Shown here: positions 740 to 42,832 of the stretch, in pieces | Position numbering within the stretch: the stretch's first letter is position 1 | Layout: each line of letters starts with the position of its first letter | Source of the DNA: Leucoraja erinacea | Lineage: Eukaryota | Length of the DNA stretch: 64,000 bases | Reading direction: 5' to 3' | NCBI RefSeq assembly: GCF_028641065.1 | Contig: NC_073410.1 | Span: forward strand, 8,184,001-8,248,000 | Translations under genes and position numbers: made by a program | Notes under the pieces: generated by a model | Database searches by the model: none | The model's input: the letters and a program-made list of their open reading frames with translations, nothing else | Told to the model about the DNA's origin: nothing

Positions 740-850
740 TCTGATCTGAAGAAGGGTCTCGACCCAAAATGTCACCCATTCCTTCTATCCAGAGATGTTG
801 CCTGTCCCGCTGAGTTACCCCAGCATTTTGTGTCTCCCTTCTTGTGTTTC
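740..850 (+). mobile_element. PLE-derived terminal-repeat fragment with decayed hammerhead motif
   Basis: CTGAAGAAGGGTCTCGACCCaaaatGTCACCCATTCC...GAGATGTTGCCTGTCCCGCTGAGTTAC, same family as the 11015-11150 copy; GAAAC core mutated. Confidence 0.7.
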
Positions 851-1848
851 TATGATCCTTAAGTCTTATCAGCTGACTATCAGAGTCAAATTTACAACCA
901 GAAATTATAAACAAGCTATAAATTAATTCCAGTACTGATCTGAGATTGGCAGCCAGTATATAAGTGGTCGCTATGGAAGTGCTAGGCATAAGAGCAAATT
1001 TCGTGCAATTCATTATTAGATTGAAAGGATGTAAATTTTCATAAACATTGCACTGATTTAGGTGGATGCCTTTAAATGTCTCTGTGTGTTATTTCAATCC
1101 AAAGTCCGATCATCGGGGCTTCGGGATATGAAAATTCCAAAGTTCACTTTCTTAGTTCCTTTCTTGCTTTGTGTTTATAGAATTGCAGCAAGAGAGCTTA
1201 ACACCTTTTTGTGTCATCCCATCTTCATGCCCTTCTCTCACAGAAAGCCAACAGTGAGTGTGTAGGATTGTCTGCTTCCCTCTAATCCGACTTGTCCTGA
1301 CAAGCAACTCACTAGTGCCTGCATTATGCAGGACCACCCCAGAAAGACAAATGGTTTTGACAAGACAGTGACTTAGCTAATCCCCAGAAAGTAACATAAA
1401 CAGACTAATCCTCCCCCTATCTCTCCATCTACTAATGTACAATCTACCTGTTGTACATCGTCTACTTGTCTTGACATTTTGGTTGAAGAGTTGAAAAAAA
1501 ACACTGAAACATTTGAAAGCTTCACATCTCAAATATAAATCTATACGTGAACAAACTCAGCCCAGCATTAATAACTAACTTGAACTATTGGAATGTTGCA
1601 TTAAGAATCATAGCAGAATACCTAATCACACCATTGAAGGCAAGATGAATCTTCCCACTCTTATGTATGTTGTTCCAACTCATGTCACTTGTCCATCCTC
1701 CACTTCTGTAGCCCTAGATCCTAAGCTATGGAATTCAAAACTCTCTCTCCTCCCTTTAAAAGCGCTGAAAACATACCTCTTTGGCCAAAAAGGCATTTTG
1801 TGCAGAGACTGGTCGTATTTCAGCTAGAAATTTTTACAGCGTTTTTTA

Positions 1849-2054
1849 TGCCCCTGTCCCACTTAGGAAACCTGAACAGAAACTTTGGAGACTTTGCACC
1901 CCACCCAAGGTTTCCGTGCGGTTCCCGGAGGTTGCAGGTGGTTGCCGGAGGTAGGGAGACTGACAAAAACCTCCAGGAACCACACGGGAAACTTTGGGTG
2001 GAGCGCAAAGTCTCCAGATGTTTCCGTTCAGGTTTCCTAAGTGGGACAGGGGCA
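1849..2054. mobile_element. PIF/Harbinger-type MITE
   Basis: Long terminal inverted repeats TGCCCCTGTCCCACTTAGGAAACCTGAAC / GTTCAGGTTTCCTAAGTGGGACAGGGGCA, flanked by TTA on both sides (1846-48, 2055-57); no ORF. Confidence 0.85.
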
Positions 2055-2323
2055 TTAGAAGTATTGCACAACTATAAGTTATCATCTAAGTTATCATCAA
2101 TATAAGACCAACTGACCAAATGGTTAAGCTCTTGTATTTATTAAATGACTCTTGGTTACAACAGAAGGCTTGGAGTGAAACTCCAACCCATGAGAGGGAG
2201 GATGACGCACGCACAACTACAAATAAAGGCTCCTTTGGATGAAACCGTGTAAAGAAATGAAGTACGGAGCCTAACATGGCCTTGCCTGGTCTTTTATTTG
2301 CAACTGAGTTCTGCTTGCTTTAG

Positions 2324-2575
2324 TCTCATAGACAGTGTGTTGGGCCTCGATGTTCCATTAAAAACCTGGCGCGTTCAGAGAGAGGAAGAAAGAGAGGGAA
2401 GAGGAAAAGAAAGGTTGCAAAACAGAGGAACAAAAGTAGAAAACCAAGGAAAAAAATAAAGGGACGAAGGAGAAAACATTTGTTGAAGACCAAGGATAAA
2501 GTAAAGGAGAGAATAAGCCATCTGAAACCCATGAGAACCAATACAGTGCAGGGGGAAAACCGAAAAGCCATTTAG
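2324..2575 (+). CDS. Candidate terminal coding exon of an unidentified upstream gene (CxGxxC plus Lys/Arg-rich tail)
   Basis: Pyrimidine tract and acceptor TTTAG (ends 2323; alternative AG at 2331), open frame SHRQCVGPRCSIKNLARSERGRKRGKRKRK...ENRKAI*, stop 2573-75, AATAAA at 2636-41. Purine bias lowers stop frequency, so uncertain. Confidence 0.35.
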   Translation, partial: SHRQCVGPRCSIKNLARSERGRKRGKRKRKVAKQRNKSRKPRKKIKGRRRKHLLKTKDKVKERISHLKPMRTNTVQGENRKAI

Positions 2576-40900: not shown

Positions 40901-41187
40901 GTGTTGCTTCATCGAGGGTCTTTCATCACCAAACGACCACTAGATGTCGCGGGATCTAACATCATTGGTTATTTTCCAATCATTGACGCTACCTTAGCTG
41001 TTAAGACACATTTTTCTTCCAAATTGTCGCCGTTTCAGATTGTGATTTTGCACCTTCTTGGTGGAGGTGCGTCAGGGACTCGCTTCTCCTCTTCTCCCCC
41101 GTCCTCTCCCCCTCTCCCCCTCTACCCTTCCTATCCTTGCCCCTGAGAAGTTGCATCCATTCGCAAGTTAGACAACGACCAGCTTAC

Positions 41188-41314
41188 CGCTGCTCTCCTG
41201 GTGTGCTTTGCAGATGGATTCTCTTTGTGGGGTCCCGGAATCCGAGAGAGTCATCGGGCTGTGATCAGGAGCATCCGAGTCGGTCAGAACACCACTCGAC
41301 AAGTTATATTCCAT
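41188..41314 (-). CDS. PITX3: Pitx3 first coding exon (not in the ORF track)
   Basis: ATG at 41314: MEYNLSSGVLTDSDAPDHSPMTLSDSGTPQRESICKAHQESS, GTAAGC donor, acceptor ttttcag before 41328. 127+206+564=897 nt in frame. LSDSGTP and KxxQE motifs are Pitx3-like, and GBF1 is adjacent. Confidence 0.93.
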
Positions 41315-42417
41315 TCGATGCGTCTGTGCTGAAAAAGTAAAACGCGGTGAAAAGTCAAGTCACTGTACATCTGCAAACACAACCTAAACAAAGACTCTCC
41401 CTTCTGTCATTCTCTCTGCGCCGCCGTATTGCCACTATGATTATTTTTTTGGATTGGCAAGCTGCAATCTTCATCATTTAAAACATTTTCTAACCCCAAA
41501 TAAAGTTAATAACATACATCACGCCACGTTCCTGGTTTGGAAATGTCATTAGATCCCCGAAACAGGATGGTTATAACACCGTCGTTATTTTGTGAAATAA
41601 ATCCGAGCGCGGTTTTGTGACATCCGTTCTCACTCTTTTTTTCTTGATCTTTCCCGTTCGATTCACCAGTGATTCACAGCGGAGACGCCGTCAAATTGAA
41701 AGTTCAAATTGGATGGGTTTGCCATTCTATGCGAATCGTGACAAGAATCGCTAATCGATTGCCCTCCTTGTCTATAACAACGTCTTGCGATATTTTAGTA
41801 ACATACGACTCTCCTCAATCTTCAGTAGGATCCTGACCCGTAACATCACATATCCATGTCCTCCAGAGATGCTACCCGACCGGCTGAGTTACTCCACCAC
41901 TGTGTGTTTTTTACTCCATTTACTGTGGATCATATTATCTTCCTTAACAAAACAAAACTGCAAGCAACGCCCGGACTTATAGTCCACTATAATGTGGGCT
42001 TCACATTGGATCTTATTCCGCACTTCACAACAAGACGTTTGCACTAAAATCCAAGCAAACACACATTCTACTTGCAGTTAAATATGACATTAACTTTGAC
42101 AAATTGTGGTCCTATAATTACAGTGATCAAGAGAGTACATTTTACTTTTTTCTGACTATCAAGAAAGCAGAGACATTCCTTTTGCCACGGCCAATCTTAT
42201 TTCCTAAGCGCACATGTCAATAGTAAGTCTATATGTTAGCTAATGCATTCATTCCGTGAAACAATTTATTGACTGTGCAACGTTTTTGAGATGTCGCTCA
42301 AAACGTGATAAAAACGATGCAAATAGATGTGATTTCTGCAAAGGTGTAACCCCAGATGTCAGGGATGTGTCGCCAGGCAGATCCAATGTTTGGGGAGAAG
42401 TATTACTTACACACCAT

Positions 42418-42832
42418 GTGTAGGAAGGAACGGCGGATGCTGGTTTAAACCGAAGATAGACACAAAAAGCTGGAGCAACTCAGCGGGACAGGCAGCATCT
42501 CTGGAGAGAAGGAATGGGTGACGTTTTGGGTCGAGATCTCGCCACGGTCCTGGTTTGGAAATGTCATTAGATCCTCGAAACAGGATGGATATAACACCGT
42601 CGTTATTTGTTAAATAAATCCGAGTTTTGTGACATCCGTTTTCACTCTTTTTCCAGAAAGAGGGAGAGAGATACAGAGACAGAGAACGAGAGAGACAGAG
42701 AGAGAGGGGGACAGAGATAGAGAAATACAGAGAAAGAGAGAGAGAGAGAGAGAATCTCGACCCAAAACGTCACCCATCTCTTCTCTCCAGAGAGGACGCC
42801 TGTCTCGCTGAGTTACTCCAGTTTTTTCTGCC
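42418..42832. mobile_element. PLE-derived inverted-arm insert with captured local sequence
   Basis: Left arm 42418-42540, right arm 42755-42832; spacer copies 41523-41640 plus a GA repeat. Confidence 0.85.

Follow-up and report, generated by a model that had tools for sequence, protein, structure and literature searches.

What produced the many short, often palindromic inserts in a 64-kb stretch of Leucoraja erinacea DNA (contig NC_073410.1, positions 8,184,001 to 8,248,000; hereafter the window, numbered from its first letter)? The first-pass annotation had proposed an abundant non-coding family of hammerhead-bearing palindromes built from the terminal repeat of a Penelope-like element (PLE), inserted as units and spread in the manner of retrozymes. 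The analysis reported here points elsewhere. The inserts are very probably dead-end, heavily 5'-truncated products of an autonomous endonuclease-bearing PLE, each made at its own site.

Position +1 of the repeat unit was set at the first C in the core of the hammerhead, and the unit extends to about +135. A profile made from 14 window copies and beginning at unit position -10 detected 48 arms of this ~135-nt unit at E<0.05, and the same profile found none in the reversed window, which served as a control. The abundance claimed initially was therefore confirmed. The density of arms was uneven, with 47 of the 48 in the first 43 kb and one in the last 21 kb (43000-64000); 44 of them lay inside 740-42834. 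Manual grouping of the arms yielded about 31 inserts of 40-730 bp, namely 16 divergent pairs and 15 singles, so that both the count of roughly 20 and the range of 100-400 bp given earlier had to be widened. The description of many inserts as inverted pairs was correct. Among neighbouring arms not more than 250 bp apart (n=23), 14 were head-to-head (-/+), 5 tail-to-tail and 4 same-strand, and the head-to-head excess was significant in a strand permutation (p=2e-5). Neither a tandem array of the unit nor any head-to-tail unit was present in the window; the sole same-strand neighbours less than 100 bp apart were two decayed pieces at 101-270.

The source of the unit was sought through the coding sequence attached to it. 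A word-indexed protein search with the decayed reverse transcriptase (RT) frame returned 63 candidates, none of them significant, and a Pfam scan of nine window open reading frames (ORFs) gave no matches. A HMMER search with the decayed frame at 8084-8569 gave 77 protein matches. RVT_1 and GIY-YIG were both present in 7 of the 12 relatives scanned (E<0.01), the longest relatives included, which is the domain arrangement of endonuclease-bearing PLEs. When 13 of the 77 relatives (RT+GIY-YIG) were used as tblastn queries against the window, three coding remnants were found, each lying on the minus strand and attached to arms. A decayed C-terminal GIY-YIG fragment with stops and a frameshift (11275-11609, -; E 1e-16) lay ~125 nt upstream of the arm 11012-11150 in the same sense. 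RT fragments at 8144-8676 (-; E 2e-17) and 17244-17450 (-) were situated inside the duplication-flanked pairs 8047-8777 and 16813-17522; the former, also decayed, was joined straight to unit position 0. RT and GIY-YIG were thus present as separate fragments, not as one ORF. Because these remnants adjoin the arms or lie between them, it may be stated that the unit is the 3' pseudo-long terminal repeat (pLTR) of an RT+GIY-YIG PLE; the first-pass annotation had rightly taken it for a PLE terminal repeat. Its description of the repeat as non-coding throughout did not hold for the two pairs with RT fragments, and there was a continuum from the short palindromes to inverted structures of 700 bp that contain coding sequence.

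Of the eight relatives looked up, three were one stingray and two whale-shark proteins, which are the nearest named relatives and fit a cartilaginous-fish host, and the others included echinoderm and coral proteins. A cysteine cluster preceded the endonuclease in all nine long relatives; the window copy was too truncated to show this cluster. According to PMC8557442, such a cluster is a mark of Neptune/Nematis. The source PLE may be of the Neptune type.

The insertion sites were compared with 5000 random site pairs, and a duplication was accepted at p<0.005; 16 pairs and 14 singles were examined, and for the elements 8047, 16813 and 33910 the boundaries had been placed by eye beforehand. Significant duplications were found at 7 of the 16 pairs and 2 of the 14 singles, a difference in frequency that was not significant (Fisher p=0.12), and the pair at 8047 had a weaker one (p=0.03). 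The duplications varied in length between 11 and 17 bp and were 71% AT, compared with 58% for the window. The five flanking repeats listed in the first-pass annotation (6160/6276, 10434/10635, 28902/29060, 33895/34020 and 42399/42834) were all present, although that at 33895/34020, real as it is, flanks a single arm and no palindrome. Further duplications were 16808/17520, 17986/18214, 21433/21858, 28097/28196 and the weaker 8037/8778.

The 3' ends of the arms clustered at two points ~35 nt apart, one near +96 (no tail) and the other near +132 (tail). This extra tail of ~35 nt was present on exactly one arm in all eight duplication-flanked pairs (p=0.004). With all pairs counted strictly, the one-tail state was observed in 12 of 16 (p=0.04). 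Of the remaining four, two were ambiguous, 23455-23716 had a tail on both arms, and 24222-24424, which combines two variants, had no tail.

The junctions between arms were nearly all different. In 16 pairs, 15 or 16 distinct junctions were counted (for example, +55/+55, -3/-3, -1/+16, +13/+8, +65/-3 and +12/+12), with gaps ranging from an overlap up to 545 bp, and when seven compact centres were compared, 1 of 21 comparisons was similar (10441 vs 23471). The pair 42416-42834 was especially informative in this respect. Two copied stretches made up its junction filler (42536-42748, +), the first matching 41518-41640 at 90% over 123 bp and the second derived from about 43566-43657; the latter is AG-rich and of low complexity, and scored 115 vs 12 on the other strand. 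Both parts had the same orientation, and their sources lay 0.9 kb to the left and 0.8 kb to the right of the pair. Since the filler was copied from neighbouring DNA, this junction was built at this locus. These observations do not fit insertion of the palindromes as finished units. Nearly every palindrome proved to be a unique truncation, the pattern that the first-pass annotation had itself set against its proposal, and only the 10441/23471 junction recurs.

The hammerhead motif was then considered. The majority consensus of 15 arms had the layout of a minimal type I hammerhead, which bears out the earlier reading of the terminal repeat. With a complete core defined as CUGANGA, helix II, GAAA and NUH, however, only 4 of the 48 arms had one (29 arms reaching the core were tested, and the other 19 were truncated past it). 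One of these four (9239, in the pair 9103-9338) was the sole arm with a complete core among the 16 pairs, so the palindromes cannot be described in general as hammerhead-bearing. The best two palindromes (10441 and 23471) were devoid of the CUGAAGA strand. The reference pLTR copy 11012-11150 (-) has a tail, and its minimal type I hammerhead is intact (core from 11144); as an isolated 53-mer, this hammerhead folded with a 6-bp helix I and a 4-bp helix II (z about 0). In the three single arms with a core, the helix II probability was 0.06-0.99, and in the pair 9103, where the core lies inside a hairpin of -147 kcal/mol, it was 0.00. Two co-folded copies of the best hammerhead formed a dimer without a clean hammerhead fold. 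An Rfam scan of the window detected no hammerhead family; its 12 matches were all below the gathering score and were explained by hairpins. The lack of a hammerhead match would be expected because the motif is without helix III. Covariation of the hammerhead was not above that of shuffles (204/500), as expected because the copies are decaying.

The predicted cleavage site was spanned by 32 of the 48 arms, and no alignment started at +26 to +32, one arm doing so at +29 by eye. In all likelihood, the hammerhead came along with the pLTR as a passenger and does not define the ends of the inserts, and some templates could have been cleaved by the ribozyme.

Many arms had a common 5' limit. The alignments of 24 of the 48 arms started within -8 to +8, and 20 true stops remained after subtraction of three that ran on into a C/T-rich untranslated region (UTR) and one misaligned on an AG tract. 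In the single arm 28097-28209, an exact 14-bp duplication places the 5' end at about -1. Three long UTRs upstream of arms did not align with one another. Because the profile begins at -10 and the long UTRs are unalignable, the shared 5' boundary rests partly on composition. A splice-acceptor origin of this boundary, suggested by a C/T tract and then AG before the core and by a Drosophila precedent, was rejected, as no upstream exon was common to the arms.

As the route by which the arms were joined, priming on both target strands is preferred over fold-back, and its chance of being correct is judged to be about even or slightly better. The PLE protein would nick the two target strands 11-17 nt apart, and the resulting 3' ends would each prime a cDNA from uncleaved PLE RNA; as they would use different ones of two internal start sites, one arm would have the tail and the other would be without it. 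Priming at the 5' pLTR of the RNA would leave just 100-135 nt to copy. Both cDNAs would grow inward, and in most cases synthesis would end at the 5' edge of the hammerhead, by run-off or stalling, or within helix II. This edge is the probable 5' end of the RNA, and it is marked just before the core by TCAGT, which resembles the initiator consensus. The cDNAs may then be joined via microhomology, by template jumps into coding sequence or by filler from neighbouring DNA.

Several published results are consistent with this route. [quoted passage not shown] Transcription of Penelope starts inside the pLTR (PMC2377424; PMC6765202), and an initiator-like word in a pLTR has been noted (PMC3846280).

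A number of observations weigh against this interpretation. Nine of the 16 pairs had no duplication at p<0.005, and the starts of six arms lay immediately 3' of the predicted cleavage site (about +29 to +39). No full-length PLE, nor a partial-tandem copy with direct pLTRs, was present in the window. The near-shared junction 10441/23471 falls in a self-complementary stretch of helix II and differs at variant positions, so that the likeness fits recurrence, although it may also reflect common descent. The both tails and mirrored flanks of 23455-23716 are not produced by two-strand priming alone; private changes were common to both arms of this palindrome, which is probably a secondary rearrangement (conversion), a fold-back product or an assembly artefact. 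Arm-to-arm identity was 0.63-0.97, and in 5 of the 14 pairs that could be measured, one arm or both had the partner as best match, so arm relatedness gives no separation of the two-primer and fold-back models. The transcription start at the hammerhead edge is deduced solely from the TCAGT motif. Finally, the junction and tail counts come from one 64-kb window, and a junction shared genome-wide could escape a sample of 16 pairs.

Fold-back, in which one cDNA or antisense template from the same PLE source folds on itself and is copied back into an inverted arm, has perhaps one chance in several of being the correct route. It was proposed for Adineta PLEs (PMC3846280), and it would suit the hairpin-like junctions at 6175, 9103, 10441 and 28722 as well as the near-perfect palindrome 23455-23716 with its mirrored flanks. 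Taken alone, however, it leaves unexplained why one arm had the tail in every duplication-flanked pair, and the very unequal arm starts (+65/-3, +73/about -90) and foreign central filler are equally outside its reach. The single arm of ~100-135 nt could instead be a non-autonomous element resembling a short interspersed element (SINE), transcribed from -2 by an internal promoter and remobilized in trans, with palindromes arising at insertion. The 20 arms that stop at the common 5' limit and the duplication-fixed end at about -1 agree with this, as does the copy of the tail and 3' flank of the 6896 arm at 5993-6064; moreover, the Penelope pLTR holds an internal promoter (PMC2377424), and pLTR sequences suffice for mobilization in trans (PMC3846280). 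Nevertheless, the same boundary is expected from priming at the 5' pLTR of a full-length mRNA, and the absence of UTR from the arms rests on composition, the long UTRs (n=3) being mutually unalignable. In addition, the anole PLE template needs ORF sequence past the start sites (first 172 nt) (PMC11167929), which solo arms would be without. A SINE-like origin is considered rather unlikely.

The retrozyme-like family proposed initially, in which the palindrome would be transcribed, self-cleaved and reinserted whole by the PLE protein, is regarded as very improbable and was largely refuted for this window. It is true that animal retrozymes derive from PLE pLTRs and are present in one chondrichthyan genome (bioRxiv 10.64898/2026.07.22.740005), that long variable duplications are compatible with them (PMC7229834) and that one junction is nearly shared (10441/23471). 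Yet retrozymes consist of complete-hammerhead units repeated in tandem on one strand (bioRxiv 10.64898/2026.07.22.740005), whereas no head-to-tail unit was found here, the insert ends lie off the cleavage site, and the one pair with a full core has it locked in the hairpin described above. Minimal hammerheads require a same-strand partner (PMC4209133), which inverted arms cannot supply within a single transcript, and the RT fragments and the locally copied filler show that junctions were made on site. Mobilization of a miniature inverted-repeat transposable element (MITE) family by a DNA transposase, which small size, palindromic form, abundance and direct-repeat flanks would bring to mind, was rejected and has a negligible probability. 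The duplications are not of fixed length, the arms end at differing unit positions (about +96 and +132) without matched terminal inverted repeats, half of the inserts are single arms, and the unit is contiguous with PLE coding sequence. A genuine MITE-like element in the same window (7145-7310) has, by contrast, matched ends and an 8-bp duplication. On this point, the first-pass annotation, which had favoured movement via RNA and PLE machinery over a DNA-transposon MITE, was right.

Much of what was found agrees with what is known of endonuclease-positive PLEs, with which the inserts share a minimal-hammerhead pLTR, head-to-head inverted copies, a one-ended tail of 30-40 bp, short duplications of variable length, marked 5' truncation and internal deletions (PMC3846280, PMC8557442, PMC4209133). 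They differ from these in that nearly all window copies are cut down to the pLTR, are very dense and in many cases have their 5' ends at one point. In the PLEs of Adineta, one of the inverted pLTRs has a 31-bp tail, and palindromic junctions, internally deleted copies and host DNA enclosed by solo pLTRs have also been described; the duplications there, of 8-10 bp, are somewhat shorter than those of 11-17 bp observed here (PMC3846280). The inverted pLTR, the tail and variable duplications have been described as general PLE features, and the mechanism has been called undefined (PMC8557442, PMC8969392). The Cercyon PLEs of Schistosoma likewise form opposite-strand pairs of minimal hammerhead pLTRs 100-700 bp apart, together with many singles, and were read as truncated PLEs; the available text of that study gives no table of duplications, tails or junctions (PMC4209133). 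De novo PLE insertions had a median length of 128 bp (PMC9977147). With animal non-LTR retrozymes, the inserts have in common that they are non-coding and pLTR-derived, with a type I hammerhead and duplications of more than 4 bp (PMC7229834; bioRxiv 10.64898/2026.07.22.740005); retrozymes, however, have complete hammerheads, are arrayed in tandem on one strand and give circular RNAs, in contrast to the inverted or single inserts of the window, in which the core is mostly incomplete.

A related process is known for L1, where in twin priming two target nicks each prime a cDNA and joining by microhomology results in an inversion. The second primer of L1 starts internally and inverts a different segment, whereas the PLE arms of the window copy the same segment from starts ~35 nt apart.

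Short inverted PLE remnants and, in a preprint, the PLE origin of animal retrozymes are already described. No paper on this family in sharks or rays was found, the available text of PMC6155905 included, in a search that fell short of most subscription papers and of the supplements of bioRxiv 10.64898/2026.07.22.740005, which possibly list chondrichthyan families. The origin of inverted pLTRs with a one-sided tail is stated to be unresolved in PMC8557442 and PMC3846280, and in the available text of PMC11167929 the in vitro result of two strands and two start sites is not tied to inverted copies by its authors. Given the one-tail rule and the common 5' limit of many arms, a genome dense in short copies offers a count-based test of two-strand priming vs fold-back. 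It is conceivable, though on balance doubtful, that PLEs follow a fixed insertion rule, whereby both strands prime at two set sites near the RNA 5' end and give mostly ~100-nt and ~135-nt arms head to head, recorded massively in cartilaginous-fish genomes; within the same tentative proposal, the solo pLTR may also be a SINE-like self-propagating element with an internal promoter. If true, such a rule would account for inverted pLTRs with a tail on one of them, a structure left unexplained in work on PLEs. The inserts are, besides, liable to be mistaken for MITEs or microRNA hairpins, and sub-threshold Rfam microRNA matches were found at 10504 and 23533.

The individual pairs were as follows, all of them head-to-head unless otherwise specified. 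The insert 6160-6292 contains the pair 6175-6277, which has its junction near +55, a tail on the left only and a 17-bp duplication with one mismatch (6160-6176/6276-6292). In 8037-8788, the arms surround an RT fragment, the tail is on the right only, and the duplication is 9 bp exact, or 11 bp with one mismatch. The pair 9103-9338 is joined -3/-3 and has its complete core at 9242 (+), with no significant duplication. At 10434-10647, two arms of variant B are joined within helix II without a core strand, with a tail on the left only and a 13-bp duplication (one mismatch). The pair 16808-17534 surrounds a C-rich 3' UTR, an ORF end and an RT fragment, and has a tail on the right only and a 15-bp duplication; 17986-18224, joined -1/+16, has a tail on the right only and an 11-bp duplication. 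A loose divergent pair at 20568-20900, with a gap of 149 nt, a tail on the right and no duplication, may represent two insertions. The insert 21433-21872 has a tail on the left only and a 15-bp duplication, and its right arm was later split by another repeat (21635-21795).

The sequence 23455-23716 is a 262-bp near-perfect palindrome of variant B with three mismatches, both tails, ~19 bp of mirrored outer sequence and no direct duplication. At 24222-24424, arms of variants A (left) and B (right) occur without a tail or a duplication and are possibly two insertions. In 25899-26111, joined within helix II (+13/+8), the tail is on the right, the left end is ambiguous, and no significant duplication was found; the same lack of a significant duplication applies to two older pairs with a tail on the left, 27112-27322 (40-nt filler) and 28722-28889 (14-bp palindrome at the junction). 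The pair 28902-29074 is joined +65/-3, with a tail on the left only and a 15-bp duplication (two mismatches), and 42399-42846, joined +12/+12, also has a tail on the left only and a 13-bp duplication (one mismatch).

Two of the single arms are flanked by significant duplications: 28097-28209 (+), which starts at about -1 and has the exact 14-bp duplication (p=0.001), and 33895-34032 (-), which has a complete core, no tail, a 15-nt 5' filler and a 13-14-bp duplication with one gap. The arm 28413-28534 (-) has a complete core motif and non-palindromic helix III letters, and no duplication was found. Single arms without a tail were located at 742-841 (+; broken core) and 41819-41907 (+), and those with a tail at 17675-17805 (+; weak flanking repeat, p=0.03), 26419-26538 (-; older) and 26959-27082 (+). 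A further single arm lies at 22726-22827 (+). In 6845-6996, an arm with a tail (6896-6996, +) comes after a short fragment of the core region that lies on the opposite strand. A 91% copy of 6954-7029, that is, of the tail and ~30 nt of 3' flank of this arm, was found 960 bp upstream at 5993-6064 between short direct repeats; it arose either by 3' transduction or as an insertion templated from nearby DNA.

Other repeats are also present in the window. The MITE-like element at 7145-7310, with matched terminal inverted repeats and its 8-bp duplication, is presumably hAT-like. Three further elements that are palindromic or have inverted ends, at 1848-2055, 13492-13911 and 18536-18760, bear no relation to the PLE unit; a terminal word is common to the first two, which resemble Harbinger-type MITEs. 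The sequences 7458-7577 and 21635-21755 are 87%-identical pieces of another repeat, presumably the 3' region of a CR1-type long interspersed element, and the second is younger than the PLE insert 21433-21872 because it splits its arm. Several related fragments in both orientations occupy 50693-57223, where a frame at 54371-54946 (-) without a Pfam match presumably resembles the N-terminus of a Tc1-type transposase.

Assembly gaps lie at 31766-32514 and 34616-34957 (1091 N in total), the first of them flanked by GT microsatellites. A paired-type homeobox gene, in which an OAR-like motif is present at the C-terminus, has exons at 31100-31660 and 34290-34450 (-), and the arm 33910-34004 is situated in the intron between them; the gene resembles Pitx3.

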